Notes: generated by a model not told the origin, from the sequence alone. A DNA stretch of 64,000 nucleotides from Alphaproteobacteria bacterium (GCA_965221125.1 CBDCRW010000004.1:736001-800000); one strand, 5' to 3'. Shown: positions 5,931 through 32,421, counted from the stretch's first letter. Numbers and translations are program-made.

Positions 5931-6730
5931 GGCCGCAGTTCCTCGAGCGCGTGCTGCAGGTGGTCGGCACTGACGGTCCTCGCCTCGTCGAGAGCGGCGG
6001 CGGAGAGCGCGTAGTGGGCGATGCGGTTGATCTGGCGCGGCAGGCCGCGCGCGCCCTGGAACAGGGCCTCGACGGCGGGCTCTTCGAACAGCGGCAGTTC
6101 GCATCCCGCGAGCCTGAGGCGGTGCTTGATGTAAGCGTCGACCTCGTCGCGGTCGAGACCGCTCAGGTGGTGGCGGACGACGAGGCGCTGGCTGAGGGAT
6201 TCGTGCATGGCCATGGCCAGGCGGCGCCTGAGCTCGGTCAGACCGACGAGGACGAGGCACAGGCGCTGCTCTGCATCCATGGCGAAGTTGGTGAGCAGGC
6301 GCAGGTCCTCAAGGACGTCGTTGCGCAGATGATGGGCCTCGTCGATGACGAGGACCGGCAGCTGCTTGGCCTCGGTGACGAGGCGGGAGATCTCGTTTCG
6401 GATGGCCTGATAGGCCGAGGCGCGGGAGCGCTCGATGGGCAGGCCGATCTCCCACGCGATCGCCTTGTACATGTCGAGCACGTTGCCCGTGGTCAGCGAG
6501 ACGTAGTGGACCCGGTAGAGGCCTGGATGAAGCTGCGCGGTCAGATGCCGGCACACGGTGGTCTTGCCGGAGCCCACCTCGCCGGTGAGCAGGCCGATGC
6601 CGCGCAGGTCGATGAGGTGGCCGAGCCTGGCCTCGGCCTCGCGGCGCGCGTTGGACTCGAACAGCTCGTCGGTCTCTGCCGGGGTCTCGAAGGGCAGGCG
6701 GGTGAAGGCGAAGTGGCGCAGGTACATCAC
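5927..6730 (-). CDS. ExeA-like AAA+ transposition helper ATPase
   Basis: GEVGSGKT, VIDEAH, GLPRQIN; coupled to the transposase. Confidence 0.88.
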   Translation of the reverse strand: MMYLRHFAFTRLPFETPAETDELFESNARREAEARLGHLIDLRGIGLLTGEVGSGKTTVCRHLTAQLHPGLYRVHYVSLTTGNVLDMYKAIAWEIGLPIERSRASAYQAIRNEISRLVTEAKQLPVLVIDEAHHLRNDVLEDLRLLTNFAMDAEQRLCLVLVGLTELRRRLAMAMHESLSQRLVVRHHLSGLDRDEVDAYIKHRLRLAGCELPLFEEPAVEALFQGARGLPRQINRIAHYALSAAALDEARTVSADHLQHALEELRP

Positions 6731-8055
6731 TCGTCCTCCTTCTTGTCCTTGAGGTTGCGCATGGCCAGCGGCGAGGGCGGAGGCTCGGGCGCCGGATCTT
6801 CGGCCTCGATCTCCCTGGCCGGGTAGGTGCGCCTGACGGCGGTATTGGCGTAGGCGTCGAGAGGGCTGGCCTTGCCGGCCGGCTTGCCGTCATGGACCAC
6901 GTCGAGAGGGCGCGAGGGCGGCGCGGCCGGGTCGTAGCGCAGGATGACGTTCTGACCCACCAGGAGGGCGTCGACCTCGTAGACGCGGCCGTTCAGACTA
7001 ACGGTGCGGTCCTTGTAGACACGGCGCCTGGCCTCGAAGAGGAACAGATCGTCGAGGTCCATGGTGGCGTCGGGATAGCGCACGCCGGCCGAGGCCAGCG
7101 CCCACTGCTCAAGCGGGGTGCGCCCCTCGTCGAGGCCACGATGCGGGCTGTTGTGATACTCCCCCTCGATCCAGGCCCAGAGGCTGCGGTTGAGCGCCTC
7201 CAGGCTGTCGACGTCATCGCCGAGGTGGCGGAGCCAGCCGGCCCGGAGGGTGCGGAAGAAGCGCTCGATCTTACCCTTTCCCGCTGGCTGGAACGCCCTT
7301 GCGTGAATCAACGCAACGCCGAGCCTGGCGCAGACCAGGGAGAGATGACGGGAGCGGTAGGCGCTTCCGTTGTCGACGTACAAGCGGGCCGGGAGGCCGC
7401 GCCGGATCAGCGCGTCCTTGAACACCGGCAGGAACGCCGCAGTGTTCTCCGCCATGGCGAAGGCGGCGAACGGGATGACGCGGGTGGCGTCGTCGATGAA
7501 GGCGATCAGGTAGGTCTTGCGCCGGGTTCGGCCGTGCCGGACCTTGGGTCCGTGCATGACGTCGCTCATCCACATCTCGCCGGCATGCCGGAAGGCGAAG
7601 CGGCGGCGATCCGCCCCGTCGGGCGGCTTCTTGTCGAACAGGCCCTCGCGGCTGAAGAGGCGGTGCACGGTGGACGAGGCGAGCGGGTGGTCGATACCCT
7701 CCTCCTTGACCTTCTGGATGATGGCGCGAACCGACAATGCGTCGTTCTCGGTCTTCAGCGCGATGAGGCGCTCGGCGACCTCGGGCGGCAGCCGCCGGGG
7801 CTTCCCCCGGTCGGTGCGGGGCTTGGGGTAGAGCGCGTCGAAGCCGCCGTAGCGGTAGTCCTTGATCCAGCGCCGCATGGTCTCGGCGGCGACCCGGGTC
7901 CTGGTGGTTCCGGGGATCGTGTAGGTCTTCTCGGCTTTGGCGCGCATCATCGCGCCGGCACCCGGTGCACCCACGGGCAGATGCACCAGATCGGCGATGA
8001 CGTCGTATCGGAAGAGCGCGATCTGTTGGCGAAGGTCGTCGTCTGAGCTGTTCAT
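6727..8055 (-). CDS. DDE (rve/Mu-like) transposase
   Basis: WMSD...FIDDATR...YVDNGSAY...GKGKIERFF; N-terminal HTH; Mu-like C-terminus. Confidence 0.93.
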   Translation of the reverse strand: MNSSDDDLRQQIALFRYDVIADLVHLPVGAPGAGAMMRAKAEKTYTIPGTTRTRVAAETMRRWIKDYRYGGFDALYPKPRTDRGKPRRLPPEVAERLIALKTENDALSVRAIIQKVKEEGIDHPLASSTVHRLFSREGLFDKKPPDGADRRRFAFRHAGEMWMSDVMHGPKVRHGRTRRKTYLIAFIDDATRVIPFAAFAMAENTAAFLPVFKDALIRRGLPARLYVDNGSAYRSRHLSLVCARLGVALIHARAFQPAGKGKIERFFRTLRAGWLRHLGDDVDSLEALNRSLWAWIEGEYHNSPHRGLDEGRTPLEQWALASAGVRYPDATMDLDDLFLFEARRRVYKDRTVSLNGRVYEVDALLVGQNVILRYDPAAPPSRPLDVVHDGKPAGKASPLDAYANTAVRRTYPAREIEAEDPAPEPPPSPLAMRNLKDKKEDE

Positions 8056-10189: not shown

Positions 10190-10711
10190 CAGGCGAGGAG
10201 GTGGGTGTTGCGGATGTTGAAGCCCGGCGACTACGGTACGATGATGGCTGTCCGGCTTGGCTGCTCAGCTTGCCGGGAGGAGCCAAGCGGGCACCCCGGG
10301 TTGACGGCAGGCAGCCTTCACGGCTACCGCTAATGTGGCGAATGAGGCCGGAACACGGCAGGGGGCGGCCATCTTGCAGTTGCCGGTTCCTCTCAAGGCC
10401 TCAACGGTATAGGCTGATCAACACTACTGCCGAGGGCTGACAGATGTCCACGCGCCCTTGCCGAGAAGGCAAAGTCAAGTCCGGACGTACACATGCCGGG
10501 AGTGCCTCCAGACAGACCGCGACGACCAGGGGACTTGGTGCTGCACGCGCAACCACCATCGCCCTGAACGTGCTGCCAAAGCGCTTTCGCGTGTGCTTGT
10601 GAACCCATCTCGCGTTGACGTACGTCAGATACGCCAACTCCTTATGCACTCACCACACAACCGCCACGTAAAGTATAGCAATCGCGAATGCACTTCGAGG
10701 AAACAGCCATA

Positions 10712-11173
10712 ATGACTTCAGATAGTCCGCCATTCAGGCTTTCCCTCTGGAAAGATTACGTGCCGCAACGAACACTTATTGCGACGCAAGTTGAAGGAAA
10801 TAGCCAGGAACCGAAGGTAATTGTTCAAGAAAATTTACAAGAAGAGATTTACTCGTGGCATACACTAGAAGATCCGTTTGGTGGTGTTACCGACTCCGAG
10901 CTACGACAAAAGCTTCGCCACGCTCTTGTGGAGCGCTTGAATCCGTCACTTCCACCGTCTCAGAGGGGTATTGAAGTACTCGAGGAATTCGCACGGCTAG
11001 CGGGAAAGGCTATCGTCGATCGTAAGGTAGAATGGGTCTGGGGACACGGTGCTTCCCAGCATAACGATGCGATGGTAGAGCCACTAAACTCCTTATTGGC
11101 ACTCAAGTTGCATGTGGATTGGCTTCTGGCCTGCTTCATTGCGCGACCCGGAATCTCGGTGTCGGTACGATGA
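10712..11173 (+). CDS. Hypothetical protein, first gene of the cargo cluster
   Basis: ORF 10688..11173; GAGGA RBS before ATG 10712; ATGA overlap with the next gene. Confidence 0.7.
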   Translation: MTSDSPPFRLSLWKDYVPQRTLIATQVEGNSQEPKVIVQENLQEEIYSWHTLEDPFGGVTDSELRQKLRHALVERLNPSLPPSQRGIEVLEEFARLAGKAIVDRKVEWVWGHGASQHNDAMVEPLNSLLALKLHVDWLLACFIARPGISVSVR

Positions 11174-13218
11174 TGTCCTTTCATCTGAATTCACCCGCAG
11201 AAGCAGAAGCGGCGATAGCTAATCTTCTCAAGGAGGAATATTCCAAGCCAAATGGTCAATGTTCCATTTGCGTTCGGGACGATGGTGCCTTTTTGAACCA
11301 AGAATGGCTCAATCTTGGTGTCCTTTACTTTCCTGACTTGCCAAAGGATTCCGATGACTTGGAAGAGTATGAGGCGTGGCAAAATCTTGTGAAACTCGGA
11401 GCGTTCGAGTGGCATATAGCGGACTATAAGGCGATCGAAGAAAAATTAGCGCATTTGCTTGGCCATGAGATCGGCAAGGGTGATTTTCATTTGGGTACTC
11501 TAACTCGCGATATCTCATGTATTGCGGTGAGGACCGGCTTGTTGCTGCCTACATTCGATCCGGCGGCGCTGGACGAGATGCCCTATCGTCGATCAACGAC
11601 TATCATATCAGATACATCTGGTGTAGTACAGGGTGGTCTGGACTTTGTTGCCTCACATCTGAGTCCTGCTGCCAGAATAAAGGTTCCTTCAATCGTGCAT
11701 ATGGAGTTGGTTGGCGCCGCTGAGAACTACTTTAGTCTTCGCAGAGCTTCTAAGACCAAGAATGCCGCGCGCCGCCGTAAGGAACTTGTGGAACACTTAA
11801 AGAGCCAAGGCGGACAACGCTCATTGCTGCGTCTGGAGCTTCACCAAAGTACGGAAGTCGAGCGCACGTTTTTGCTCGGCGACCCGCTGCGGGAAGCTTT
11901 TGCAACAGATAACGACCGTGAATTGTCTGGTCTAAACATTAGTTTGGCAATTAGGTCTTACGCAGACCGTCTAATTTTAGAAGCGGCCCGTCAACATCAA
12001 GCGCATATGGGCCCCGGGCATGAAGTGCGACTACTAACCGCGGATCAGGGTTTGGCTAGAATGGCGTTAGCAGAGGGCATCCGGCCTTTATATTTCGGGA
12101 CAATTGACGCGGGAAGATTTTTTGGCAACTGCTTGACTGGAAGAACTTTTGACCCGTACCAAGGATCGGTGCAAGGGATCTCAATAGCGACGGTACTTTG
12201 GGAATTTGCTACGGCGTTTGGTTCAGCGCGACTGCAAGGGAAACAGACGGGGAGTGAGTTTTGCGTTTCGGCGCTTGGAGAGGATATGTCGTGGGCACCA
12301 TATCATTCCTTAGAAGACCTGCTTTGGTGTCGTCGGACCAATGGCGCGCCCAAGACCGACCCATCCAAAGTTGCCAAGAGGGAGGCTCGGGCCAAGGGGG
12401 ATGATCACGGCGAGGGGGTGGCTAAGCGGCCGAGCCGTACTACGACCTACCGACGCTTTGATGTCTCGAAGTTAGTCCGGCTGGTTTGCGAGCTGGATGA
12501 CGTACAGAAAATGGACGAAGAGGCAGTTGTAGGGATTGTTCAAACGAAGCATACCCGAGGGTTCCAGGAATACGAACGGTTTTTGTTGTCAGGAGGATTT
12601 ATCTCAGAGTCAGGAGGAATTTGGACTGCGGAGCCTCCCCTAATGGATATGTCCGCGGCGCTTCGGAACGAGAACGTGGAGGCTGTTCGTGACTTGTTGG
12701 GCGCTACACCTTCTTTCAGCGACTTCATGGGACTGCTTGGGAATGCAGGCCTCGGGGAGCCGTTGGATACGGAGTTCGCCGGTCGGAGCTCATCCACCTA
12801 TCGAACGTTGGGCGAAATTGTGCATGTCTGCGCCGCGGTTCGGGGAAAGGGGATTTACTCGACGGCGACCGTGCCGGATGCAGAGGGCTTTGCGGAGATC
12901 GCGCTAAAGCGGTTTCGCCAGCTCGACAAAGGCGACGGGTTGGTGTCCACGGGCAAGTGGCTGGAAACGCTTGTTGCAGAGGACGGCATTCATCCCGAAG
13001 TAGCTCGGAAGCTATTGGAGGAAGCAAGACAAAGACGCTTGTTGCGAAGGTCGACAGAGGGATCGACGATGCAAATGCGGTATAGAACGCACATCGTGCA
13101 TATCTTGCGGGTGGTATCCGGTGTTCCGACGGTAGTTCCTGTGCACCTGTATAGGGGAGATTACCTGATTCAGGGCAAGGCCAGTGCGAGCTTGCGGATT
13201 GAAGGAGGCGATCAATGA
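11170..13218 (+). CDS. PIN-domain protein with long C-terminal extension
   Basis: PIN-type acidic motifs: IISDTS, KVPSIVHMEL, YADRLILE, LLTADQGLARMA. Confidence 0.7.
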   Translation: MMSFHLNSPAEAEAAIANLLKEEYSKPNGQCSICVRDDGAFLNQEWLNLGVLYFPDLPKDSDDLEEYEAWQNLVKLGAFEWHIADYKAIEEKLAHLLGHEIGKGDFHLGTLTRDISCIAVRTGLLLPTFDPAALDEMPYRRSTTIISDTSGVVQGGLDFVASHLSPAARIKVPSIVHMELVGAAENYFSLRRASKTKNAARRRKELVEHLKSQGGQRSLLRLELHQSTEVERTFLLGDPLREAFATDNDRELSGLNISLAIRSYADRLILEAARQHQAHMGPGHEVRLLTADQGLARMALAEGIRPLYFGTIDAGRFFGNCLTGRTFDPYQGSVQGISIATVLWEFATAFGSARLQGKQTGSEFCVSALGEDMSWAPYHSLEDLLWCRRTNGAPKTDPSKVAKREARAKGDDHGEGVAKRPSRTTTYRRFDVSKLVRLVCELDDVQKMDEEAVVGIVQTKHTRGFQEYERFLLSGGFISESGGIWTAEPPLMDMSAALRNENVEAVRDLLGATPSFSDFMGLLGNAGLGEPLDTEFAGRSSSTYRTLGEIVHVCAAVRGKGIYSTATVPDAEGFAEIALKRFRQLDKGDGLVSTGKWLETLVAEDGIHPEVARKLLEEARQRRLLRRSTEGSTMQMRYRTHIVHILRVVSGVPTVVPVHLYRGDYLIQGKASASLRIEGGDQ

Positions 13219-14336
13219 GCCTACGAGATAAGCTTCAGCAGGCGCGACGCTCCAGCGAGGGCTCGCCACGGGGGATGTTTGAGCGCTTCGGAGTAACAGC
13301 GAATCCGTTCCCTGCGGCAAGCCAAACGTCGGGGAATCCTCATTATCCGCAAGAAGAAGCAGATGAACTGGCGGAAACGCAAATTGCTGCGTTCGTAAGG
13401 GACAATAGGTCACAGAGCTTGACTGTCGTCGGTTCTCAAGGAGTAGGAAAGACGAATTTTCTAAATTATTTTGAAGAACAATTGACTGATGTCGCAGACG
13501 AATTAGAGGGTTACTATGTTGTTCGATACCTAGCGGATCCTGAAAATACGTTTGATGGCACAATTCACAAATTGCTTCAAGAGTTAGGCGCAGAGCATTT
13601 TGCGAGACTAGCAGAATCGTTGAGTGAGGATCAAAATGCGATACGAGTGGCACGAAGTCAAGATCTTCAGACAGCACTACGTAGGCTTGCAGAAACAGAT
13701 GAGAATGAAGATAGAGCAGAAACTATTGAGTTGATGCTGGCTTGGCTGTTAGGACACCGAGTCCTAAAGATACATCGGGAATGGCTAGGAGTGAATTTTC
13801 GACAAGATACAGTCGAGGCAAAAACTGCGACTTTTCGTGATATCGTAGAAGTGAGCAGCGAAGCGGGAATTCTAAAGGGAATTTTTTTGCTGTTAGACGA
13901 ACTGGAAAAGCAGGATGGCGTTTTGGGCCCGAGAGCAGTGGTAAGATACCTGTCGGCAATCAGGGCGATTATTGATGCCTTGCCGCGAGGCTTGTTTTTG
14001 ATGCTGGCGGTGACGCCGGATGCGCTATTGCGATACACTGCTGCACTGCCAGCGTTACGCGGAAGACTGGAAAATCAGGTAGTATTGGAAGCTTTGCAAG
14101 ATGAAGAGGAAGCAGTAGAACTGGCAGAGTTCTATATCGACAAGGCTCGCGAGAAGGCAAGGGAAGATCGTAATCGGAGGGGAGGAAGTGAAGAAATCTT
14201 GTCGAGGCGTAAGATTGAGAAATGTTTTCAGACGCTTTGGGAACGAGCGGAGGAAAGAGGAGATGACGGTGTCAGGCAACGAGAGTTCTTGAACGCACTT
14301 CATCTTCGTACCGAAAAAGAGCTGCGGGGAGATTGA
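13215..14336 (+). CDS. P-loop AAA+ ATPase
   Basis: NPFP, Walker A GSQGVGKT, Walker B LLLDELE, Arg-finger-like ALRGRL; ATGA overlap. Confidence 0.85.
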   Translation: MSLRDKLQQARRSSEGSPRGMFERFGVTANPFPAASQTSGNPHYPQEEADELAETQIAAFVRDNRSQSLTVVGSQGVGKTNFLNYFEEQLTDVADELEGYYVVRYLADPENTFDGTIHKLLQELGAEHFARLAESLSEDQNAIRVARSQDLQTALRRLAETDENEDRAETIELMLAWLLGHRVLKIHREWLGVNFRQDTVEAKTATFRDIVEVSSEAGILKGIFLLLDELEKQDGVLGPRAVVRYLSAIRAIIDALPRGLFLMLAVTPDALLRYTAALPALRGRLENQVVLEALQDEEEAVELAEFYIDKAREKAREDRNRRGGSEEILSRRKIEKCFQTLWERAEERGDDGVRQREFLNALHLRTEKELRGD

Positions 14337-14369
14337 AGCAGTGGAGACGAGTGATAGCCTAGGGATGGA

Positions 14370-15845
14370 ATGAGTGGTGTGAGCGAGGACGGGATGGCGG
14401 CTGTAGCAATCGAAAAACAAGATGGAAGCGCGGTCGGGAGAAATACGCCAAATTCTCAGCAAGGGGCACAAACGAAGAGGACAGGGAGGGGATTCGTGAT
14501 AAGCGGTGCTCCAAGGCTGGTAGTGTCTGGGCGAATTCGTAGGGAGTCCGAGAAGCACGATCCAGATCGGGAATATCGGTTTGGTTATGCTGATGAACAC
14601 CATTCGGAATTACCGCACGTGGTCAAGTTCTCGGGTGGCAGATCGAGTGGCATGCTGCTGTTGACACTCTTGGCAAATGACATACTGAAGGCCGAACGAG
14701 GGGATGTCGTGTTGTTCAATAATACGGCAAGCGAGCATCCCCAGACTTACGACTTTGTAAGAGAGTGTAAGGCAGTAACGGAGCAGTACGGTATTCCTTT
14801 CTACCTTGTGGAGTTTCAGACCTATGAAGACGCCCGCAAGGGCGAGTGGACACGGCTGCCGAGCTACCGCCTCGTGAATAGCAAGCCGTGGTCAGAAACG
14901 AATCCGGACGGGGTCCATTGGCGGGGCGAGGTTTTCGAGGAGGTGATGTCGTGGTCGGGGTTCGTGCCAAACCAGTTCCGGCGTATCTGCACGACTAACA
15001 TGAAGTTGGGTGCAACCCGTATGTTCCTGCGCGACTGGTTGGCTTGCAAAGAGTCGATTCCGCGGCTTGGACACTTCGGATCGGGGTGCCGTATAGACGG
15101 GAAGGCTATGTATGCGCGTCACAGGCGCAACGGCGGAGAGGTGCCCGAAGAAATCTACATTGCCAAGAAGCGGTATGGCTGGAGCCGTCCGTATGTCCGG
15201 CCAGAACAGCGATACGAGAGTTTTTCGAAGGCATGGCGACCGTTCGAAAACAAGTGGCTAGCGGGCAAGGCGCATGGCGACCTGGCGGTGTTTGGCAAGG
15301 GAGGCGTCGAGTATGTGGCGTTTGTCGGCCTGCGTTGCGATGAGCCCGCAAGAGTCGGAAGGGTGAAGGAACGCAATAATGGGCCCGAAGCATCCGGATA
15401 CGATGGCGAGCATGTGTACATGCCCCTCGTGGACATGCACGTGGCGGCAGCGGATGTGAATGCGTTTTGGGCCCGACAGGAGTTGGACCTATGTTTGCCC
15501 CCGGACAGTGGGCTCTCGAACTGTGTGTACTGCTTCTTGAAAGGCGGTGCGACGCTGCGGAAAGTGCAACGTGAAATGGCGGGCGCGAAGCGCCAGGAAG
15601 CTCGGCTAGGCTACGGTCCACTCGACGGGACGCCGTGCGACGTCGCATGGTGGCAACGCATGGAAGAGGTGTACGGGCGCGACCTCGTAGCGGAGGAGCG
15701 GAAAATTCAGTCGGAGTTGGAGCATGATTTCCTGGGCTTCTTCGGTGCGGGAAGCCGATTTACGTATCGGTTGCTCGGAGAAGCCGACGAATCGGAGTTG
15801 GAGCAGTTCGACGCCAGTTTGTTGCCCTGCGATTGCACGGACTAG
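14370..15845 (+). CDS. Cys-rich PP-loop / PAPS-reductase-like protein, putative Fe-S sulfur-insertion enzyme (alternative start 14394)
   Basis: KFSGGRSSG PP-loop, FNNTASEHP, RICTTNMK, GLRCDE, NCVYCFLK, terminal CDCTD. Confidence 0.8.
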   Translation: MSGVSEDGMAAVAIEKQDGSAVGRNTPNSQQGAQTKRTGRGFVISGAPRLVVSGRIRRESEKHDPDREYRFGYADEHHSELPHVVKFSGGRSSGMLLLTLLANDILKAERGDVVLFNNTASEHPQTYDFVRECKAVTEQYGIPFYLVEFQTYEDARKGEWTRLPSYRLVNSKPWSETNPDGVHWRGEVFEEVMSWSGFVPNQFRRICTTNMKLGATRMFLRDWLACKESIPRLGHFGSGCRIDGKAMYARHRRNGGEVPEEIYIAKKRYGWSRPYVRPEQRYESFSKAWRPFENKWLAGKAHGDLAVFGKGGVEYVAFVGLRCDEPARVGRVKERNNGPEASGYDGEHVYMPLVDMHVAAADVNAFWARQELDLCLPPDSGLSNCVYCFLKGGATLRKVQREMAGAKRQEARLGYGPLDGTPCDVAWWQRMEEVYGRDLVAEERKIQSELEHDFLGFFGAGSRFTYRLLGEADESELEQFDASLLPCDCTD

Positions 15846-15847
15846 AC

Positions 15848-16987
15848 GTGGCGGAACGGCCGGTCTATCTGGATTGTCAAGCCACGACGCCGCCTGACCC
15901 GAGAGTGGTCACGGCGATAGTCGAAGCGTTTGATGCATTCGGGAACCCACACGGGCGTCAACACGTATACGGGCGAACGGCGGCGGACGCCATAGACGTG
16001 GCTCGGAGTCGGGTGGCCGGACTTCTGAACACGTACCCCAATCGAATCGTATTCACATCCGGAGCAACGGAATCCTGCAACCTCGCACTGCGGGGCGTGG
16101 CGCGCGCCGCCGCTCCCAAGCGACGGCGTATCATTACACTCGCTACAGAACATGCGGCGGTGCTCGAGACTGTAGAGGATCTAGGACGACACGGTTTCGA
16201 GGCGATCGTCTTGCCGGTCAGGCCGGACGGGCTCGTAGACCTCGATTGTCTCGACCAGGTGGTCGACGACGAGACGCTGATCGTTTCCGTCATGGCAGTG
16301 AACAACGAAATCGGTGTGATCCAGCCGCTCGCCAAAGTCGCTTCGATCTGCCGGCGCTATGGCGCACTGTTCCATACTGATGCAACGCAAGCGCCCGCTC
16401 GCATCGAAGTGGATGTCGAGACTTGGGGAGCCGACCTCTTGTCGATTTCGTCGCACAAGCTGTACGGACCAAAGGGCATTGGGGCGCTGTACGTGGCCGA
16501 TGACGGATTGCTTGGACCCACGTTGACCGGAGGTGGTCAAGAGCGTGGCATGCGGTCGGGAACAGTGCCGACGGAGCTCGCGTGCGGCTTCGGAGAGGCT
16601 GCGGAGCTGGCCGGAGACGAGCGGCCTGCTGACGCCGAGCGGATGACTCGTCTTGCCGCCAAGTTGCGGACCGGTATCGATGCGATGGAGGCGGATGTAC
16701 GCTATTTCGGTTCAGACAAGGAGCGGGCGCCTGGGACGTTAAACTTTGGGTTCCCTGGGATCTCCGGCGACAAGCTCGTTGCGATGGTGGAGACCGAGAT
16801 TGCGATCTCGAGCGCCTCCGCGTGTTCCTCCGGAACTGCAGGAGTTTCTCATGTGCTAGCCGCGCTTGGTTGCGGCCGGTCTGAAGCACTTACCGGCGTG
16901 CGTGTGGGATTGGGCCGATTTACGACGGAGACAGACATCGAGATTGCTTTGACGGCGATTGGTCGGGCGGTAGGTACGGCTGCATGA
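15848..16987 (+). CDS. Cysteine desulfurase (IscS/DndA-like)
   Basis: YLDCQATT, FTSGATES, PLP lysine in HKLYGPKG, catalytic Cys in SSASACSS. Confidence 0.93.
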   Translation: MAERPVYLDCQATTPPDPRVVTAIVEAFDAFGNPHGRQHVYGRTAADAIDVARSRVAGLLNTYPNRIVFTSGATESCNLALRGVARAAAPKRRRIITLATEHAAVLETVEDLGRHGFEAIVLPVRPDGLVDLDCLDQVVDDETLIVSVMAVNNEIGVIQPLAKVASICRRYGALFHTDATQAPARIEVDVETWGADLLSISSHKLYGPKGIGALYVADDGLLGPTLTGGGQERGMRSGTVPTELACGFGEAAELAGDERPADAERMTRLAAKLRTGIDAMEADVRYFGSDKERAPGTLNFGFPGISGDKLVAMVETEIAISSASACSSGTAGVSHVLAALGCGRSEALTGVRVGLGRFTTETDIEIALTAIGRAVGTAA

Positions 16988-17000
16988 AGAGATTGGGACG

Positions 17001-19313
17001 ATGGGATTGAAGCGAGCGATCATCGACGAGATGAAGGTGAAGCAGCTGCGCAAGGCGGTGCAGCAACTGGAATTGGCTGTTGATAGCTATAGGGACAAGG
17101 AATCACTTGCCGGTGCTCTCAGAAAGTCGCGTCGAGCTACAGCCGAGACGTTGGTGGAATTCCTGTCCGAGAAGGACGTAAAGCGGCTGTGCGATCGTCA
17201 GGGGGTTGAGTCGAGGGGACGTCGGCGGGAGCTGATAGCGCGGCTGTTGGAGTCAACGGGTACAGCCTCTTCAGCCGGGGACTCTGGGGAGACGCAAAGA
17301 CCAAGGGCAGGAACGAACGCAAGAAGGCGCCGGACGCGGGGCCGATCGAGTAAGGCTGCACCTGACCTCCTGTTCGGCCACAGTACGGATCGTACTGGGT
17401 TCACGCCGGCAGGAATCGCCGCGTTTTCGGATCTCAGACCGGCTGCGGTAGTGCGGGAACTCATTCAGAACTCGTTGGACGCAGCCTTGATTGAGGCTAA
17501 CGAAGCCTGCGCGGTCGTAAGGTTTGAGCGAAGTACGTGCACGTTAGAGGAAATCCCGGGAATCGAAAGTTACCGTACGGCGTTTGAGCGAGCTGTGGAG
17601 GAGCAAACTCCTTCTGGTAGTGCACGCTCCGTAGTTGAGCGGATACGGCGGACATTACTAGAGGAATCGCACGATCTGCTGTGTGTTATCGACAACGGAG
17701 TGGGGCTTGACGGCAGGCGAATGTCGGCTTTGCTGAGTGACGGGGTGAGCGACAAAGGGGGCAACGCTTCTGGGACTTTCGGCAACGGACACTCGGCGGT
17801 GCTTCCCGCATCGAACCTCCGGTATGTGATGTACGGTGGGCTAACGGCCGATGGTCGCACCTATGGTGCCGGCCAAGCGGTGCTGGCGTCGCACCGGGAC
17901 GAGGGTGATTGGCGCAGTCGATCTGGGCGCGGGGTATATCTGGAGTCATTTAAGCCTAGTGCGGTCGACGTACCGTTCACTCTGGCCTCTGAAGATGCAA
18001 TCCCGCCGATGGTCGTGTCCGCGATTAACAGGATTCGTGCTTCGTACGGACACGGGGCGGCGGTGGTTATCCCGGCGTTTAATAACTTTGAGCACGTGCA
18101 ATCTTTGCGAGAGGCAGTGTTCAAGGCAGCTAGTTTTAACTTCTTTCAGGCGATTCAGGAAGGACGTCTGGTGGTGGAGGTGGAGGATCAGGAGGAAAGC
18201 GGTGTACTCGACACGCTGAGGTTAAGGGAAGTGCTTACGCCGTATCGCGACGAAATGCGCTCTGGTCGTTCGGGTGCGTTTCTTTCCGGACGAAAGGCAA
18301 ATGAAGCCTACGAAACTCTCGTCAATGGGGAGGAACACGAGATTGAGACTACGCAGGGAAACGTAGCGGTGCGCTTGCTTTGCCGGGAAACGGGTCGGCG
18401 TAGCGTGGGGCTATGCAGGAACGGGATGTGGATTACGGATGACCTGCCGATGTTTCAGAACGCGTTTGCGGATCGACAGCCATTTCAGGCGCTGATCCTA
18501 CTCACCTCGGATCGCGAGGATGGTTTCTATGAACTAATTCGAGAGGCGGAGACGCCGCTCCACGATAAGCTGGCGCCGAAACAGATGGACCCAGTTCGAA
18601 GAAAGGCTCTTCGGGACGCGCTGCGTGAGATTCGGGATGGGATCGCGGAATTGGTCCCGCCTTCGACAGAGGACGTTTACAGCCCAAAGGACATCTTGGC
18701 CTTTCAGTTTGAAGATGTAGAGGGGCAGGGGCGAGGTGGCCGCCAGCCGTCCTTTTGGGGCCGGGTGGGAAGCACTCGACGGTCGACGCTGGTGAGGCGG
18801 AAGACAGGGAAGCGGGAGGCTGGAGGAACCGGGGAAGGCGGCGGCGGCGGAGGAGGACGCAAGAAGCGTGAGGGACGGATTGTGACGGAGCGGATATTCC
18901 GGATCGCTTCGGTGCCCACCGACGAAGGTGGGCGCACAGTTCATGTGGAATGTACAGAGGAGTTTGAGGACGCAGAATTGCGGGTATTCGTAGACGAGAA
19001 CGTGGATGCGACTTGCGATCGGCAAACACGTGCTCAGGCGGCGGCGGTGTTGCTGTCGAACGTGAAGGTGGATGGACGCCCGTTGTCTGAGGAAGAACTG
19101 ATCGGAAACGACGACGGGACTGTGGGTGCGAAGTTGGGTTGCCTGCAGGCAAATGCGCGGGTCGTGGTGGAGACCGAGTATGCGATACCTGCAGCGGCTA
19201 TGCGTCTCCCAAGTGGACAAGAGCCCGCACTTCGGTTCGAGGTACAAAGCAGTCGACGGGTTTCATCCAAGGACAGTAGCGAAATTGATGACGAGGTGCT
19301 GTCCGATGGATGA
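17001..19313 (+). CDS. GHKL (HATPase/MORC-like) ATPase with N-terminal tandem SAP/HEH-like domains
   Basis: VVRELIQNSLDA, IDNGVGL, GTFGNG; N-terminal LSEKDVKRLCDRQGVESRGRRRELIARL. Confidence 0.75.
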   Translation: MGLKRAIIDEMKVKQLRKAVQQLELAVDSYRDKESLAGALRKSRRATAETLVEFLSEKDVKRLCDRQGVESRGRRRELIARLLESTGTASSAGDSGETQRPRAGTNARRRRTRGRSSKAAPDLLFGHSTDRTGFTPAGIAAFSDLRPAAVVRELIQNSLDAALIEANEACAVVRFERSTCTLEEIPGIESYRTAFERAVEEQTPSGSARSVVERIRRTLLEESHDLLCVIDNGVGLDGRRMSALLSDGVSDKGGNASGTFGNGHSAVLPASNLRYVMYGGLTADGRTYGAGQAVLASHRDEGDWRSRSGRGVYLESFKPSAVDVPFTLASEDAIPPMVVSAINRIRASYGHGAAVVIPAFNNFEHVQSLREAVFKAASFNFFQAIQEGRLVVEVEDQEESGVLDTLRLREVLTPYRDEMRSGRSGAFLSGRKANEAYETLVNGEEHEIETTQGNVAVRLLCRETGRRSVGLCRNGMWITDDLPMFQNAFADRQPFQALILLTSDREDGFYELIREAETPLHDKLAPKQMDPVRRKALRDALREIRDGIAELVPPSTEDVYSPKDILAFQFEDVEGQGRGGRQPSFWGRVGSTRRSTLVRRKTGKREAGGTGEGGGGGGGRKKREGRIVTERIFRIASVPTDEGGRTVHVECTEEFEDAELRVFVDENVDATCDRQTRAQAAAVLLSNVKVDGRPLSEEELIGNDDGTVGAKLGCLQANARVVVETEYAIPAAAMRLPSGQEPALRFEVQSSRRVSSKDSSEIDDEVLSDG

Positions 19314-20169
19314 GGTTGTGACAGAGGCGAGATCGCCAAATGCCGCGGTTCGGGGGCATGCGTTTCCGTCGCTGGAGTCGGGAAATACCTCTTTTCCGGA
19401 TGGACGATACGTAGTGGGATTCGAAGCTGGGGCTGACGCGAGTTCGTTTACTGTGAGGCATCGCATTGAGGGGGCTCCGCTGATTAACGACGTGATTACA
19501 GGCGGGCTCGCACAGTTCGTCTGCACGGTGGCCTCCCCAAACTCTTCGTATCGAGTAAGCCATGTGTCGGATGCCAGCTCCCACGTGATTGGTTGGCAAA
19601 GCGTGGATCTTGGCGAGCCGCCGATGTTCACGCCGATGGTAGTTGTTGCAAAACCGTTTACAAGGACGCTGGAATCGGCAAGAGACGGTGTCCACGAGCT
19701 CTGGCACGGTCGGACAGTCGCATTCCAACGAGGCATGAGGCTTGCGTTGAGCGATGTCGTGCTGATGCGTTCATCGGTTTTGAATATGTTGCTGTTCGAG
19801 CGGGATCCCGCGCTTTCAAATGGCGAGTTCCGTGTTGAGGCGGAGGATCGAGAGGGATTTCGATTTCGTGCGTATCTTGCCCCCGATCTTCACCAATTCC
19901 TAAGGTATGACACTGAAGACTTGCGGCGAAGTCACATCGTAACGCACATAGTGAGCGCGTGCTTTGGCGTGCTGAAGGCGGATTATGCGGAAGACGAGGA
20001 GGAAGACGGCGGTTGGCGGTCCTATCGCGGTCTCCAGGCTTTGGGGGAGATGTTGAAGGAACACGGTTTGCCGCACTGGTCAGAGGACGACTTCTCGCCG
20101 GAGTTGGCTGCCACCAAACTTTACCCGCACCGGGTCGATGAATCTCCCGGTTCAGCCGGAGAGGACTGA
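19306..20169 (+). CDS. Hypothetical protein, partner of the GHKL ATPase
   Basis: ATG 19306 overlaps the previous stop by 8 nt; beta-rich N-terminal half. Confidence 0.7.
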   Translation: MDEVVTEARSPNAAVRGHAFPSLESGNTSFPDGRYVVGFEAGADASSFTVRHRIEGAPLINDVITGGLAQFVCTVASPNSSYRVSHVSDASSHVIGWQSVDLGEPPMFTPMVVVAKPFTRTLESARDGVHELWHGRTVAFQRGMRLALSDVVLMRSSVLNMLLFERDPALSNGEFRVEAEDREGFRFRAYLAPDLHQFLRYDTEDLRRSHIVTHIVSACFGVLKADYAEDEEEDGGWRSYRGLQALGEMLKEHGLPHWSEDDFSPELAATKLYPHRVDESPGSAGED

Positions 20170-20177
20170 GACAATCC

Positions 20178-21056
20178 GTGTACGCTGAGTTCGATGATGC
20201 GGGATACACCAAACTACGTCGATCGCTGATCCGAAAGGCGGCCAAGGGTTCTATTGCTCAACGGTCGTTTCTTGAGGCGGTACGCGATACCGGTAGGTTT
20301 TTGGCGCACATGAAGGACGTCGTAGGCGTACAGGAAGGTGAGGAACTGGAGCCGCTGGCGGATCGAATGTCGGAGGCAGAGTTCGGGAATCCACCTTCTG
20401 ACACCGAGCGGCGCCTGTTCGAGGCCTGGGGTGGGTTGACACCGAGAGTTGCTTGTCGAACGGCATTTTGGGCACGCGTGACCTACCGGCACATTGAGAA
20501 CGGGCGGATAGAATCATCGTTCTTAGCGGCCAATGGTGGTGGCAACGTGAGCGGCGTACAGCGCATCGATGAAGCATTGAGTTCCACTGGCGAGAAAGCG
20601 ACTTTGGAGCTGGATAGATGCGTACGAACGGTGCTCAGGCGGCTCGGTGGATTGCCTGAGGCGCGCGGGAATCGATCAGTCTACGTGAACTGCCCACTAG
20701 CACGGGCTTGGTGGCGGGAACGTTTGGTCGCGGAGATGGCGGGGGACGATGGTGACGATCTGGAACGGCAGATTCGCGCCGTGGTGCATCCCGAGAGCCA
20801 ACAATATTGGGAAGAGTTGGTAACTTTCGTTGTGTCGAGAAACTCGGTGTTCGGTTCGGTATCGGTTCGAGACACCTTAATTCGCACCCTCGCCATGGTC
20901 TTGGATGATAATCCTGATTCGCCAGTGCGAACGGCTGATGAACTAAGGCGTGTATGCCGATCTGTGAGCTCCATACAGGCGTCGGTCGAACTGAGTGTCG
21001 TGCCACCCCAGGAGGTGCAAACCATGATGCGGGGAATTGTCGAGGCTGTGGCGTAG
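20178..21056 (+). CDS. Hypothetical helical protein, possibly DUF6339-like
   Basis: LTPRVACRTAFWARVT and CPLARAWW recall DUF6339 motifs from memory (unverified). Confidence 0.6.
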   Translation: MYAEFDDAGYTKLRRSLIRKAAKGSIAQRSFLEAVRDTGRFLAHMKDVVGVQEGEELEPLADRMSEAEFGNPPSDTERRLFEAWGGLTPRVACRTAFWARVTYRHIENGRIESSFLAANGGGNVSGVQRIDEALSSTGEKATLELDRCVRTVLRRLGGLPEARGNRSVYVNCPLARAWWRERLVAEMAGDDGDDLERQIRAVVHPESQQYWEELVTFVVSRNSVFGSVSVRDTLIRTLAMVLDDNPDSPVRTADELRRVCRSVSSIQASVELSVVPPQEVQTMMRGIVEAVA

Positions 21057-21067: not shown

Positions 21068-22252
21068 TCATTGCACCGTGGTTTTGTCAGCACTCTGAAC
21101 GGACGACAGGTTCCCACCGATGCTCCCGGTGATCCGCGCGGCAGCGTTCTGGATGGAATCTCGGGCGAGGTGAGCGTACCGGGCGGTGGTCTGCACCTGC
21201 GTGTGACCGAGCAGCTTCCCGATCATGGTCAGGCTCTCGCCGAGCGCCAGCGCCCTCGAAGCATACGAATGACGAAGGTCGTGAATTCGCACGTCCTCCA
21301 GACCGGCGCGAGCGCGGATGCGGCGCCAGGGGCGCTGGAGATCGGTGATGTGGGAGCCCGGCAGCCTGCCGCGGATGACCCAGGGGTTGTCCTCCTCGCG
21401 GGGCACGGCCGCCAGCACGGCGCGGGCCTCGGGTCCGAGCGGCACGACCCGTCCGCCGGTCTTCGCGTCGGGGAGTTCGATGCAGTCGTCCTTGACGTAT
21501 TCCCAGCGCAAGAACTGGATCTCCGATAGCCGGCAGCCGGTCAGCAGCAGCAGACGGAAGGCGGCGACTGCGGAGGGCATCTCGCTCTCGGCCTCGGCGA
21601 GAACCTCGCCCAGGCGCTCGGTCTCCTCGGGCGAGAGGAACCGCTCGCGCTTGCTCTCCTTGTAGCGCTTGACGTGACGGCAGGGATTGGACCCGTCCGG
21701 CCGCAGGCCCCAGATTTCGGCGAGCGAGAACATCTTGGAGAGCACGCCGAGCGTCCGGTTCGCCTGGTAGGGCTTGTCGCGAAGGTCGAAGTGCAGCTTG
21801 GCGATGTCCTTGCGCTCCACGCCGGCGATCCGCATCTCGCCGATCGCGGGGTCGATGAACAGCTCCACCGACCGCCGGTATTCCCCCTGGGTGCTGGGCT
21901 TGCAATGGACGGGGACATACTCCTCGAGGAAGCGCCTGCCGAGATCGGCCATGACCGGCTCGGCCTCCGGCTTCGCGTCGGCATCGCGCGGGTCGATGCC
22001 CTTCTTCGCCTGGGCCAGGATCTCCAGCGCCGCGGCTCTCGCCTCGTCGGCGGTGATGCGCCCGTGCTGGCCGATGGTGAACCAGCGCAGCTTGCCGCGG
22101 ACGCGGGTCTGAAGGACGTAGTTCTTCCGACCCGACTTCCGGACGCGGAGGCCGAAGCCGGTCAGCTCCCCGTCCCAGTAGATAGTATCGGCGCCGTTGG
22201 CCTTGACGGCCTCGACGGCGCGTCTGGTGAGCTTGGGGATGCGGTTTGGCAT
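21068..22252 (-). CDS. Tyrosine integrase with arm-binding domain
   Basis: TGCRLSE, HDLRH, LLGH, TTARY catalytic residues; adjacent to the tRNA fragment. Confidence 0.95.
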   Translation of the reverse strand: MPNRIPKLTRRAVEAVKANGADTIYWDGELTGFGLRVRKSGRKNYVLQTRVRGKLRWFTIGQHGRITADEARAAALEILAQAKKGIDPRDADAKPEAEPVMADLGRRFLEEYVPVHCKPSTQGEYRRSVELFIDPAIGEMRIAGVERKDIAKLHFDLRDKPYQANRTLGVLSKMFSLAEIWGLRPDGSNPCRHVKRYKESKRERFLSPEETERLGEVLAEAESEMPSAVAAFRLLLLTGCRLSEIQFLRWEYVKDDCIELPDAKTGGRVVPLGPEARAVLAAVPREEDNPWVIRGRLPGSHITDLQRPWRRIRARAGLEDVRIHDLRHSYASRALALGESLTMIGKLLGHTQVQTTARYAHLARDSIQNAAARITGSIGGNLSSVQSADKTTVQ

Positions 22253-22441
22253 GGGACAAAATTCTTGACGTTGGAAGAGCAGTCTAGCAAGCTGGCAAAC
22301 TATTGGCAAACACTTTGGATGGTTTCGCAGCGCAGGAAAGGCGGCGCATGCGTCCGCAAAAATTATGAAAAGGCCAATATATCAGCAGTTTGTCAACATT
22401 CAGTCGTCGTCAGCGCATCTGAGACGCAGTTTGTGGTCACA

Positions 22442-22486
<45 letters not shown>

Positions 22487-22488
22487 CA

Positions 22489-22525
22489 GAAAACGCCGCT
22501 GATCCAATGGATTAGCGGCGTTTTC
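22489..22525 (+). terminator. Hairpin after the tRNA fragment
   Basis: GAAAACGCCGCTGATCC-AAT-GGATTAGCGGCGTTTTC followed by T-rich sequence. Confidence 0.7.
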
Positions 22526-22880
22526 ATTTTCGGAAGGATTCTTCCGAAACGCAGTTCGGAATGCATTCGGAATGGAATCTGCGGGAACGCAGGAGGACAC
22601 CAGAGCATATGGGACCACGAAATCGGGGATTATTGGATTATGGCGACATGGTGACGGCGAGGGCGGCCAGCACGGAGGAATCTCCTAACGTGGGCGCGCT
22701 GCTGGTCCGAGCGATCGCCTCTCGCGTCTGCTTGCGAGCAGCTCACTATCGCGTGCGGCCTTTCGGCGGACTCTAGTTGCCCGATTGCGGAGTTCCTCAC
22801 GCCGAATCGGGCGGGCGACAAGCGTCTATGCCAACGCGCTGATGACCGCGTTTCAGGTTGTCCGTTCTCGAACACTACCT

Positions 22881-24104
22881 CTACCCGTTGCGCCGATTAC
22901 GTTCCGCCTCTGCCATTTTTGGCGTGAAGACGGTGAATGTGTCCTGCATGATCGTCTTGTCCGCGCAGGGGTGATGCAGGCCCAACAGGTCGTTTTCACC
23001 AATTACCCGATATACCGTGTAGCCCTCGCCCACACCCTTCAGGCACATTGGAGTGATGTCTTTCTTGACGTACCGGAGGGTGTGATCGAAGCGGGTGGAC
23101 GAGCCCCCTCGGTCGAGCGGACATTCGATCATGGCCCTTTGCAAGCCGGTGCCGTCCAGGCCCTCTTCCGACTCTTCCGAACGGTCAACGACTCTTTCGA
23201 ATAGTGCTCGGCCTACAGTGACAACGCACGGCAGGGCGAATTTGGTCGCTCGGAAGAATCGATCCACCTCCCAACCGATGTAATCGGTTCGAAATGCCGT
23301 GATTAGCCGTCTCCCATCTGCCATGAGGCTGCCTGCGTGGAGGCGGTTCCCCAGCTCGATGAAGTCCTCGTTGTTCGAGCTTTCCCCGGTACCGATGATT
23401 TCCGGCAGGCGCTCCGTCACGAAATCGCACCGTGGCCCGCTGACCTCGAAGGCGTCGTCCAGAATGTCCATATAGAACTTGAGCGGCAGATTCCTGATCT
23501 CGAACGGTCGGTCGCCAGGCTCTTCGTCGTCCGCGGCGGACGTCCAAAAGATCGCACGGCCGGCGACAGCGAGGGCGGAATGGAACAGGCGGGCTGCCAA
23601 AGACCGCAGCTTCCACAACTCGTCCTCGCCGACCTCGTACAGCAGCCAGATCTCGTCTCCGATGCCCTTGACCACAAAGGCATGCTTCCAATCCCAATCC
23701 AGCCCGCAGTGCCCGTCTTGAAACAGCTGCGTGTAGAATCTCCACTCTGACAGCAGGAATTGCCGGTGGAACGCCTTGTACCATTCGGCTAGTTCCTCGT
23801 CGTTGCGCGCGCACGCCCTCATTGTCGCCTTTGCCTCCGTGGAGCCGCAGACGTCCATCGAGATCGATATCACCGTCGTTCGACCGCGGCTCTCCTCCTT
23901 TGGTTCGGGTCCGGGCAATTGCGCACGCAACTCCTGGAGGAGGCCACGACGTTCGGGTTCGGGCTCCCGGCTTGCCATGAAGTCGAGGCACCTCGCCATC
24001 CGCTCCCGATCGTTCGGGGATGTCACAGCAGCTTCGGCAGCACATGCTGCGAGCGCGGCGTCCCTGCTGACTTCGTCGTCTCCAGATCTCCCGTGCACCG
24101 CCAT
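22881..24104 (-). CDS. Class III nucleotide-cyclase-like protein, probably 5'-truncated
   Basis: SMDVCGST, KGIGDE, DYIGWEVDRFFR match the cyclase motif pattern. Confidence 0.7.
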   Translation of the reverse strand: MAVHGRSGDDEVSRDAALAACAAEAAVTSPNDRERMARCLDFMASREPEPERRGLLQELRAQLPGPEPKEESRGRTTVISISMDVCGSTEAKATMRACARNDEELAEWYKAFHRQFLLSEWRFYTQLFQDGHCGLDWDWKHAFVVKGIGDEIWLLYEVGEDELWKLRSLAARLFHSALAVAGRAIFWTSAADDEEPGDRPFEIRNLPLKFYMDILDDAFEVSGPRCDFVTERLPEIIGTGESSNNEDFIELGNRLHAGSLMADGRRLITAFRTDYIGWEVDRFFRATKFALPCVVTVGRALFERVVDRSEESEEGLDGTGLQRAMIECPLDRGGSSTRFDHTLRYVKKDITPMCLKGVGEGYTVYRVIGENDLLGLHHPCADKTIMQDTFTVFTPKMAEAERNRRNG

Positions 24105-25628: not shown

Positions 25629-25919
25629 ATGCGAACCTGGAGCGACAACATCGAGGCCGTCGCGCGCGCCCTCTGCGAGAAGATGCTGGCGCATGACGGC
25701 GTCAGCGAGGAGCAGCTCGCCGCCGACGTCGACATGTGGTGGCACCAGGTAGCGGCGGAACTTGAGTGCGGGGTCATCGACGAGGCCGGCGAGTATGTCG
25801 GCGGCGAGATCGACGTGAAGCGCAAGATGGCCGGCTACCGCGACTGGATGCGCCGCCATCCCGGGAGCCGCGCGGTCTGGGAGACCGCCCGACACGGGGC
25901 GCCGCTACCTCGAAACTGA
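25629..25919 (+). CDS. Hypothetical protein
   Basis: 96-aa ORF with high-GC codon pattern. Confidence 0.6.
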   Translation: MRTWSDNIEAVARALCEKMLAHDGVSEEQLAADVDMWWHQVAAELECGVIDEAGEYVGGEIDVKRKMAGYRDWMRRHPGSRAVWETARHGAPLPRN

Positions 25920-32383: not shown

Positions 32384-32421
32384 GCAATGACTGTCGTGGC
32401 TTTGGCAAGCGGGGTGCAGCC

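Follow-up and report, generated by a model that had tools for sequence, protein, structure and literature searches.

Phosphorothioation of DNA in thermophiles is the work of the Tdp system (TdpABC), and SspABCD, reportedly described by Xiong et al. in 2020, is said to be a single-strand DNA phosphorothioation system. Dnd, Ssp and BREX type 4 each join the same sulfur chemistry to a P-loop ATPase. The available part of PMC12914056 calls phosphorothioation the only backbone modification known for DNA and attributes it to the Dnd and Ssp families and, from 2026 on, also to BREX type 4; SspABCD is described there and in the available part of PMC10853773. Here, we analyse an eight-gene locus (g1–g8) in a 64,000-nucleotide stretch of DNA from Alphaproteobacteria bacterium (GCA_965221125.1 CBDCRW010000004.1:736001-800000), which as a whole is called the window below. 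The locus consists of two independently recurring cassettes, g1–g3 and g4–g8. The second of these, referred to as the module, is a conserved, horizontally mobile, unnamed five-gene operon, which we consider fairly probable to be a GHKL-based variant of DNA phosphorothioation-type self-marking.

According to open reading frame (ORF) calling, eight co-oriented ORFs on the + strand fill window positions 10688-21056:

10688..11173, + strand: g1, small protein of no family, directly upstream of g2 in 33/33 g2 loci
11170..13218, + strand: g2, PIN-domain protein of ~680 aa; likely start ATG 11170, ORF open from 11119
13215..14336, + strand: g3, 373-aa AAA+ ATPase, BrxC/BrxD-like and weakly Orc1/Cdc6-like, in 32/33 g2 loci
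14370..15845, + strand: g4, PP-loop ATP pyrophosphatase of the PAPS-reductase/SspD/DndC clade; start 14370 or 14394, conservation from residue ~44
15833..16987, + strand: g5, class-V pyridoxal phosphate-dependent cysteine desulfurase, SspA/DndA/IscS-like, the sulfur donor; Aminotran_5 at 3.9e-71
17001..19313, + strand: g6, GHKL (Bergerat-fold) ATPase, PDC-M33A/sacsin-like, with an N-terminal SAP-like extension absent from most homologues
19306..20169, + strand: g7, 287-aa beta-sandwich and helical protein of the PDC-M33B family; start revised from 19126
20178..21056, + strand: g8, 292-aa DUF6339-like protein, predicted adaptor on g4; DUF6339 faint in the window copy

The junctions are tight. 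The g1/g2 (11170) and g2/g3 (13215) junctions are ATGA overlaps, g3 and g4 are separated by 33 nt, g4 and g5 overlap by 12 nt, g5 and g6 are 13 nt apart, g6 and g7 overlap by 8 nt with the g7 ATG at 19306, and the g7/g8 gap is 8 nt. This confirms the layout given in an earlier note made from the sequence, which had proposed eight co-oriented genes with overlaps or short gaps forming a sulfur-based system that fits neither Dnd nor Ssp. Promoter and terminator scans of the region stayed at or below shuffle expectation and do not settle the transcription units.

The proposal that the eight genes form one unit is not borne out by their distribution. A g4 search with one genome per species gave 7 loci, and a g4 profile built from 61 relatives gave 178 matches in 185,579 species genomes, 80 of which were kept. 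Altogether, 81 other loci with the module, some of them stopping at contig ends, were scanned by tblastn with the window proteins. g4 was detected in 81, g6 in 79, g7 in 76, g8 in 74 and g5 in 72 of these loci, with the order g4-g5-g6-g7-g8 kept in nearly all, whereas g1, g2 and g3 were each found in 0/81. A locus search with the single g2 protein gave none, and a g2 alignment search yielded 33 loci (L086-L118), which contain g1 (33/33), g2 (33/33) and g3 (32/33) in the order g1-g2-g3 with variable flanks and no other conserved neighbour. g4 adjoins g1–g3 in only one of the 33 (L086), which lies at a contig end and is 84-91% identical to the window. Because g1–g3 are missing from all 81 module loci and 32/33 g1–g3 loci have no adjacent module, the eight genes are two cassettes rather than one system. 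The G+C content also differs between g1–g3 (0.512) and g4–g8 (0.584). Thus, the recurrence of gene order holds for g4–g8 in 81 other loci and for g1–g3 on their own in 33, but not for all eight genes together; likewise, the idea of a sulfur system outside Dnd and Ssp stands for g4–g8, given the remoteness of g4, the recurrence of the module and its phosphorothioate-associated neighbours, and is not supported for a coupling of g1–g3 to it.

The module is not rare, with at least 1228 clusters of g4 relatives at 90% identity in addition to the 178 matches among species genomes; for none of the 120 g4 relatives listed is a source name given or a Pfam domain precomputed. g4 identity across the module loci is 50-81%, and the hosts include Alpha- and Gammaproteobacteria, Acidobacteriota, Binatia, Latescibacterota, Dehalococcoidia, Spirochaetia, Gemmatimonadota and others. 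A tblastn search with g4 against PLSDB plasmids and INPHARED phages gave no match at 1e-10. Many of the module genomes belong to lineages typical of sponge symbionts, namely, Poriferihabitaceae, Entotheonella, Binatia, Latescibacterota and Dehalococcoidia. DNA phosphorothioation genes have been reported as enriched in the sponge-symbiont habitat in the available part of PMC5099237.

Hidden Markov model scans and invariant motifs bear out the earlier assignments of g5 as a cysteine desulfurase, g4 as a Cys-rich PP-loop protein and g3 as an AAA+ ATPase. g5 is a desulfurase of the DndA/SspA type used by Dnd and Ssp, matching the PADLOC models SspA (5.3e-129) and DndA (1.9e-127), while the NCBIfam IscS and DndA scores lie below their equivalog cutoffs (DndA, 340.9 bits vs 480). 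It was not found by tblastn in 9/81 module loci; in Dnd systems, according to the available part of PMC10853773, housekeeping IscS is able to replace DndA. g4 displays the SGGxxS loop and Rossmann-like fold of PP-loop ATP pyrophosphatases of the PAPS-reductase clade. Invariant in its family are SGGRSS (S88, G90, R91, S93), C207 and C385-x-x-C388, and C487-D-C489, two residues from the C-terminus, is near-invariant, so that g4 is predicted to be an iron-sulfur (Fe-S) enzyme with a C-terminal Cys-x-Cys tail. Its Pfam PAPS_reduct score (19.2 bits) is below the cutoff of 22.5, the PADLOC BrxP model gives a weak partial match (2.4e-5 over 64 residues), and the DndC model TIGR03183 gives no match at E≤0.01. 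Sequence and profile searches of the PDB with g4 and with the g4, g6, g7 and g8 families returned nothing below E 0.05. The AlphaFold2 model of g4 (mean predicted local distance difference test, pLDDT, 84.8) has no Foldseek match in the PDB at E≤1e-3, the best being 2goy_A at 6.9e-3. In an exhaustive alignment, APS/PAPS reductases come out on top with Z of 9.6-10.1: 4bwv_B at 10.1 (root-mean-square deviation 4.4, 195 residues aligned), 2goy_A at 10.0, 7rge_A at 10.0 and 6vpu_A at 9.9. The Fe-S tRNA thiolases NcsA (Z 8.9) and TtuA (Z 8.3) and also LarE (Z 8.3) follow, and TilS, ThiI and MnmA match as well.

The g4 family was also compared by hhalign with small SspD and DndC alignments built from already flagged genomes. 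Against SspD, the probability is 42% (E 2.6e-4, 225 columns) and the alignment pairs the motifs SGGR(S/D)S, R-x-C-T-x-x-x-K-L, R-x-D-E and C-x-(Y/F)-C-F, i.e. g4 is collinear with SspD through the catalytic motifs. Relative to SspD, g4 is ~200 aa longer and has two insertions of its own, ~143-185 and 227-312. DndC bears the same RWCT..K and CxxC motifs as g4. Since the SspD motifs align but the insertions are large, and DndC can be aligned only by half, g4 is, judged by its sequence, a putative third, long-branched member of the SspD/DndC kind, a remote relative of SspD that falls outside the family of the SspD model. At ~200 kb from the module (G000:C4:959580-960329, outside the window), the same genome has a second, degraded g4-like frame with one TAG, which is 30-33% identical to g4 over residues 82-257 and 305-491; no g5–g8 relatives were found in the 3 kb examined.

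The earlier description of g6 as a SAP-GHKL ATPase stands in its GHKL part. g6 matches PADLOC PDC-M33A (3.3e-37) and, weakly, a sacsin ATP-binding domain (1.3e-3), and it carries the N-box (ExxxNxxD), G1 (DxGxG) and G2 (GxxGxG) motifs of GHKL proteins, with E153-x3-N157-x2-D160, D231-N-G-x-G235 and G258..G261-x-G263 invariant across 44 sequences. No Pfam HATPase was called at E≤0.01, and the best hit of a PDB profile search was MORC3 at E 0.6. The SAP part is less secure: the domain was not called in the window g6 at E≤0.01, and PF02037 (SAP) is precomputed for 11/120 among the matches listed for g6 relatives, which form 673 clusters.

Homologues of g7 have 272-337 aa (median ~284 aa), and the start at 19306 is preferred because the shorter product fits these lengths. 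Of the g7 family members, 61/67 match PDC-M33B, although the window g7 itself gives no match at E≤0.01 and drew no hit in the Pfam and NCBIfam scans either. In the closest relatives (loci L001, L003, L005 and L006), protein-level similarity still extends over the 60 codons before the g7 start (window 19126-19305), the tblastn alignments beginning at residue 1-3 of the long ORF; these codons overlap the end of g6 in another frame. The conservation is probably at the DNA level and derives from the C-terminus of g6, but a longer g7 isoform may exist. The AlphaFold2 model of g7 (pLDDT 91.5) has no Foldseek match in the PDB at E≤1e-3, and VIA-align finds only generic FN3-type sandwiches (Z≤8.0). 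DUF6339 is matched by 51/70 g8 family members (best 2.7e-10). Searched against 1.84 billion representatives, the g8 profile recovers 452 relatives at E≤1e-3, and the best 150 representatives include 6 full g7+g8 fusions and 5 more proteins in which the g7 N-domain is fused to g8. An ESM Atlas search with the g8 homologue P0361 returned low-recognition fungal hypotheticals only.

A complex of three chains, g7, g8 and g4(60-491), was predicted with its own alignments and scored on g4. The ipSAE of g4 against g7 + g8 is 0.78, compared with 0.00 for the best of 3 controls; by a calibration that is only rough, 0.78 is reached by 58/80 solved complexes and by 2/110 mismatched pairs. At least 90% of contacts are shared between runs, the pLDDT of the partner is at least 82, and replacing g8 in the prediction abolished the score. 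The predicted contacts involve g8 residues 62-76, 121-135, 197-206 and 246-251 and g4 residues 154-160, 234-255 and 299-307. The g4 segments lie in the insertions that SspD lacks, and D154, R156, G158, W160, G234, H235 and H251, which are invariant in g4, are found at the predicted contact. The prediction supports docking of g8 on the g4-specific insertions.

To characterize the genomic company of the module, ORFs were called on either side of it in the 81 loci and clustered, and the cluster representatives were scanned. The recurring partners are:

25/81 loci: DUF262/GmrSD_N proteins of ~600 aa, 12 of these ORFs lying inside the operon between g5 and g6
16/81 loci: 661-aa protein with a sigma-70-region-4 helix-turn-helix (HTH), accompanying Pbe genes
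11/81 loci: TIGR04096, ‘DNA phosphorothioation-associated putative methyltransferase’ (582 bits, cutoff 150)
8/81 loci: PbeA, also matching TIGR04095 (314 bits, under cutoff)
4/81 loci: PbeC
8/81 loci: DGQHR/DndB-like proteins

At least one DUF262, Pbe, DndB or HTH protein is present in 48/81 loci. The DUF262 neighbours carry LDGQQR and a C-terminal HH-FP...N...N motif, which we take to be of the His-Me/DUF1524 type. The flanks also hold nucleases, methyltransferases, toxin-antitoxin and Thoeris-like genes. Among 26 genomes in which the module lies beside Pbe, TIGR04096 or DndB, DndC was found in 6 (5 above cutoff) and strong SspD in 7, none of them adjacent to the module, and 14/26 are without canonical dndC and sspD. 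In the genome of the window (92% complete), neither DndC nor a canonical SspD was found. The strongest case for the module supplying the mark used by such neighbours is their presence beside it, which is an argument by association only.

The module resembles Ssp in its SspA-like g5, in the collinearity of g4 with SspD and in the frequent presence of DUF262-type nucleases, as SspE is found beside Ssp. However, none of the eight proteins matches SspB (DUF4007 nickase) or SspC (AAA+ ATPase) at E≤0.01, their places being taken by the GHKL ATPase g6, the beta-sandwich protein g7 and the DUF6339-like g8; g4 has the two additional insertions predicted to bind g8, and the DUF262 neighbours match the PADLOC models HEC-05 and PDC-M55C, not SspE. 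g3 was considered as an SspC equivalent of the module and rejected, as it is part of the g1–g3 cassette and is not matched by the PADLOC model SspC. Dnd (DndABCDE with DndFGH or PbeABCD, double-strand phosphorothioation) shares with the module the DndA-like desulfurase, the RWCT..K and CxxC motifs and, in other genomes, the adjoining PbeA/PbeC, DGQHR/DndB-like and TIGR04096 genes. It differs in that g4 is not recognized by the DndC model and that no DndD (SMC-like ABC ATPase) or DndE is detected among the eight proteins with PADLOC/NCBIfam models at E≤0.01. BREX type 4 (BrxP-BrxC-PglZ-BrxL) is, in the available part of PMC12914056, a case in which an already existing defence chassis has taken up a PAPS-reductase-type enzyme, and g4 has the weak partial BrxP match; but g4–g8 contain no PglZ, BrxL or BrxC, their chassis is GHKL-based, and the BrxC_BrxD Pfam match sits on g3, in the other cassette. 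The absence of DndB/D/E, DndFGH, SspB/E and PglZ from the eight proteins, already noticed earlier, was thus upheld with Pfam, PADLOC and NCBIfam models, and the models of DndC and SspC gave no match either.

The GHKL side of the module is closest to PDC-M33, an untested candidate system of PADLOC. A genuine PDC-M33 locus was found in one of 400 other genomes sampled (L146, G302:C16:20500-40400) and encodes a 624-aa GHKL protein, a 278-aa g7-like protein and a 249-aa product of a third gene; it lacks relatives of g4, g5 and g8, and sulfur genes are absent from it. Faint g8-like motifs are seen in the third gene (W-A-x-x-x-x-H and R-x-W-W), but this gene is not claimed as a g8 homologue (hhalign probability 0.5%). 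Because the PDC-M33A/B scores are moderate, g6/g7 are, as far as their sequences tell, probably a sister family of PDC-M33 that carries extra genes, and since the genuine locus is without g4 and g5, the sulfur enzymes look as if they had been recruited to a pre-existing GHKL module. The weak sacsin-type match of g6 recalls the Tiamat/sacsin-like GHL ATPases. Tiamat-like genes adjoin nucleic-acid-modifying enzymes according to the available part of a preprint whose text contains 0 occurrences of PAPS, desulfurase or sulfur (bioRxiv 10.64898/2026.09.30.754977).

Under the reading we favour, g4–g8 would place a sulfur mark, probably a phosphorothioate in the DNA backbone, on self DNA for the purpose of defence. 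g5 would draw sulfur from cysteine as a persulfide and hand it to g4, where the flexible Cys-x-Cys tail at the C-terminus would probably carry it to a cluster bound by C207/C385/C388, and g4 would activate the target with ATP and insert the sulfur. The GHKL-based apparatus would bring g4 to DNA in place of DndD/DndE or SspB/SspC: g6 as a dimerising GHKL ATPase providing DNA engagement and energy, with a SAP-like DNA-binding head in the window copy, g8 docked on the two g4-specific insertions and g7 as the partner of g8. The mark would then be read by the sensor or nuclease that lies next to the operon in each genome, i.e. DUF262/His-Me nucleases, PbeA/PbeC or DndB-like regulators; in the window, no such reader adjoins the operon. 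g1–g3 (10688-14336) are a different, independently mobile cassette that merely lies upstream on the same element.

Several points weigh against this reading. Its phosphorothioate part is argued from homology and neighbouring genes, and 33/81 loci as well as the window have no counted partner within the flanks examined. Canonical dndC or sspD is held elsewhere in 12/26 partner-bearing genomes and could serve the partners. g4 is remote from SspD, as the hhalign probability of 42% indicates, and its PADLOC SspD match (2.9e-7) has no stretch passing alone; against 8 DndC sequences, hhalign gives a probability of 3% (E 0.015) and covers the N-terminal half only. Given this remoteness from both SspD and DndC and a fold that fits tRNA base thiolases nearly as well, the substrate of g4 could be a base or RNA. 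Structure and profile searches recognized no DNA-binding or nicking fold in g7 or g8, and the score of the predicted complex is the model's own confidence and no measurement. Finally, nearly all of the 81 loci come from metagenome-assembled genomes of a few projects, and their counts are therefore not independent.

A further-reaching version of the favoured reading, which we regard as doubtful, is that the sulfur mark is made by a new route, in which a topoisomerase- or MORC-like GHKL clamp opens or traps DNA for a DUF6339-tethered SspD-like Fe-S enzyme. The resulting mark may then be unlike those of Dnd, Ssp and BREX type 4, with a new sequence context or strand pattern, or may be a thiolated base instead of a backbone phosphorothioate.

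Among the alternatives, the best surviving one, although unlikely, is that the module is itself an effector that thiolates invading DNA or makes a sulfur nucleotide or base, or that it writes a sulfur mark other than phosphorothioate, such as a thio-base. The g4 fold fits NcsA, TtuA and LarE almost as it fits PAPS reductases, g4 is distant from DndC and SspD alike, the GHKL and g7 pair occurs without sulfur genes as a candidate defence system, and 33/81 loci show no partner, all of which is consistent with this alternative. By contrast, the recurring neighbours are tied to phosphorothioate systems (TIGR04096 above cutoff, PbeA/PbeC, DGQHR/DndB), and the conserved Cys layout of g4 is the one common to SspD and DndC, which argues for the self-marking reading instead.

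It is quite unlikely that all eight genes form one system in which g4–g8 mark self DNA and g1–g3 are the mark-sensing restriction or abortive-infection arm. Such an arrangement would fit the common orientation of the genes in the window and the short g3/g4 gap, at which no terminator-like site was called, as well as the g3-g4 junction repeated in L086; a g4 relative is also found somewhere in 11/33 g1–g3 genomes, and known phosphorothioate modules swap restriction partners. The distribution of the cassettes speaks against it: g1–g3 are absent from 81/81 other module loci and alone in 32/33 of their own, so that their earlier interpretation as coupled restriction or abortive-infection effectors is not supported, and the difference in G+C points in the same direction. 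Furthermore, 13/33 g1–g3 genomes, including two cultured isolates, show no g4, DndC or SspD, and a requirement of g1–g3 for a phosphorothioate system is rejected on this ground. The g1–g3 genomes are rich in dndC (12/33) and sspD (8/33), and we read the co-occurrence with sulfur genes as reflecting defence-rich genomes and not dependence. Finally, thiolation of tRNA or rRNA or a role in Fe-S/cofactor metabolism, with no tie to DNA or defence, is very improbable: a cysteine desulfurase with a PP-loop Fe-S enzyme is the standard tRNA thiolation kit and the g4 fold also fits TilS, ThiI and MnmA, but the module is patchy (in a GHKL-marker search of 400 genomes sampled from the host phylum, it was absent and one unrelated PDC-M33 locus was found), has spread horizontally over phyla at up to 81% identity, resides on an integrase-bearing low-G+C element, keeps company with nucleases, methyltransferases, toxin-antitoxin and Thoeris-like genes, and is always linked to a GHKL ATPase, SAP-bearing in some copies.

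The g1–g3 cassette is a separate and also undescribed PIN/AAA+ cassette and a candidate defence or toxin system; no confident PADLOC match was obtained for it. Across loci, its products have lengths of ~155 aa (g1), ~690 aa (g2, with the PIN domain) and ~369 aa (g3, the AAA+ ATPase). g2 has a weak Pfam match to PIN_4 (E 3e-4, 21.5 bits vs a cutoff of 21.9) and at least 525 clusters of relatives, with PF13638 precomputed in 11/120 homologues among the matches listed; D165, E196, D283 and D309 are invariant in the family. g3 matches BrxC_BrxD (7e-8, 32.2 bits vs a cutoff of 22.2), AAA_22 and TIGR02928 (3.7e-4); a search of 60 relatives of the host detected no copy of it.

Both cassettes are the cargo of a ~30.6-kb element that is bounded by tRNA-Met direct repeats and has an integrase at its right end. 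The G+C content at 10-21 kb of the window is 0.49-0.61, compared with ~70% for the host genome. The right end is formed by the following features:

21068..22309, - strand: tyrosine integrase, Arm-DNA-bind_3 + Phage_integrase (Pfam 4.5e-19 and 1.9e-14), right end of the mobile element
22441..22486, + strand: 46-nt 3' part of tRNA-Met(CAT), the right attachment repeat, found by reading the sequence 22250-22900

The tRNA-Met fragment is ~130 nt from the integrase start and is followed by a hairpin and T-run (22489-22530). An exact 46-nt copy is located 30.6 kb further left, at G000:C4:727802-727847 (+), and precedes the window start by 8.2 kb. Because this fragment near the integrase forms a direct repeat with the left copy, the earlier view of the integrase as tRNA-targeting is supported. 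The intact tRNA-Met gene is at C4:571416-571492 and is identical to the 46-nt fragment at 43/45 positions; within the 64-kb window, no tRNA gene was found by ARAGORN or Rfam (gathering thresholds, and also E≤1 on 22300-22600). In all, the genome has three exact copies of the 46-nt 3' end, at G000:C4:704415 (inverted), 727802 and 758441. As all three are far from the intact gene and one is inverted, they suggest that several elements accreted in tandem over ~187 kb, with later rearrangement.

The surroundings of the locus are a mosaic of defence and mobile genes:

2196-8055: SMC_N/AAA_23 ATPase (692 aa), AAA_25 + MarR protein (- strand) and rve/Mu-type transposase (- strand), in the same tRNA-Met-bounded element, upstream of both cassettes
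2-340 (- strand) and 25905-26864 (- strand): two phage-type PAPS-reductase (SGGKDS) genes, the left copy running off the window start
27789-37876: second low-G+C block with a type III restriction-modification pair (N6_N4_Mtase; ResIII + RE_endonuc) and an HNH_2 protein

The two phage-type PAPS-reductase genes have in common a 300-nt direct repeat (86% identity, 26.4 kb apart) and give weak matches to the SspD model (1e-10 to 1e-12), but they are not relatives of g4. The second low-G+C block also contains, on the - strand, another GHKL ATPase (HATPase_c_3, 763 aa) beside a metallophosphatase/TPR protein.

Our literature search, which covered main texts, found no description of the module, and none of PDC-M33, of DUF6339, of phosphorothioation with GHKL, HATPase, MORC, Hsp90-like or sacsin proteins, or of a defence system that joins a cysteine desulfurase and a PAPS reductase to a GHKL protein. 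The legend of Fig. 2 in the available part of PMC12914056 has ‘top topoisomerase’ among the neighbourhood genes, and a GHKL neighbour may be present there. A 2026 survey for phosphorothioate systems required, in the available part of its account, a P-loop NTPase beside a DndC/SspD homologue (PMC12914056, section 6); such a survey would miss g4–g8 by design, because a GHKL-based module with a divergent PP-loop enzyme does not fit that criterion. Should the module make a phosphorothioate or another sulfur mark, a further kind of motor, the third, would be known for this chemistry. The module would also explain why Pbe, DndB and TIGR04096 genes occur as ‘orphans’ in genomes that lack dndC or sspD, give a functional context to PADLOC PDC-M33 and Pfam DUF6339, and offer a compact five-gene cassette for studying how sulfur-insertion enzymes are aimed at DNA. 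If, in addition, the doubtful new route proved true, the module would be the fourth sulfur epigenetic system, assembled independently of the others and found mostly in uncultured bacteria of the symbiont type.

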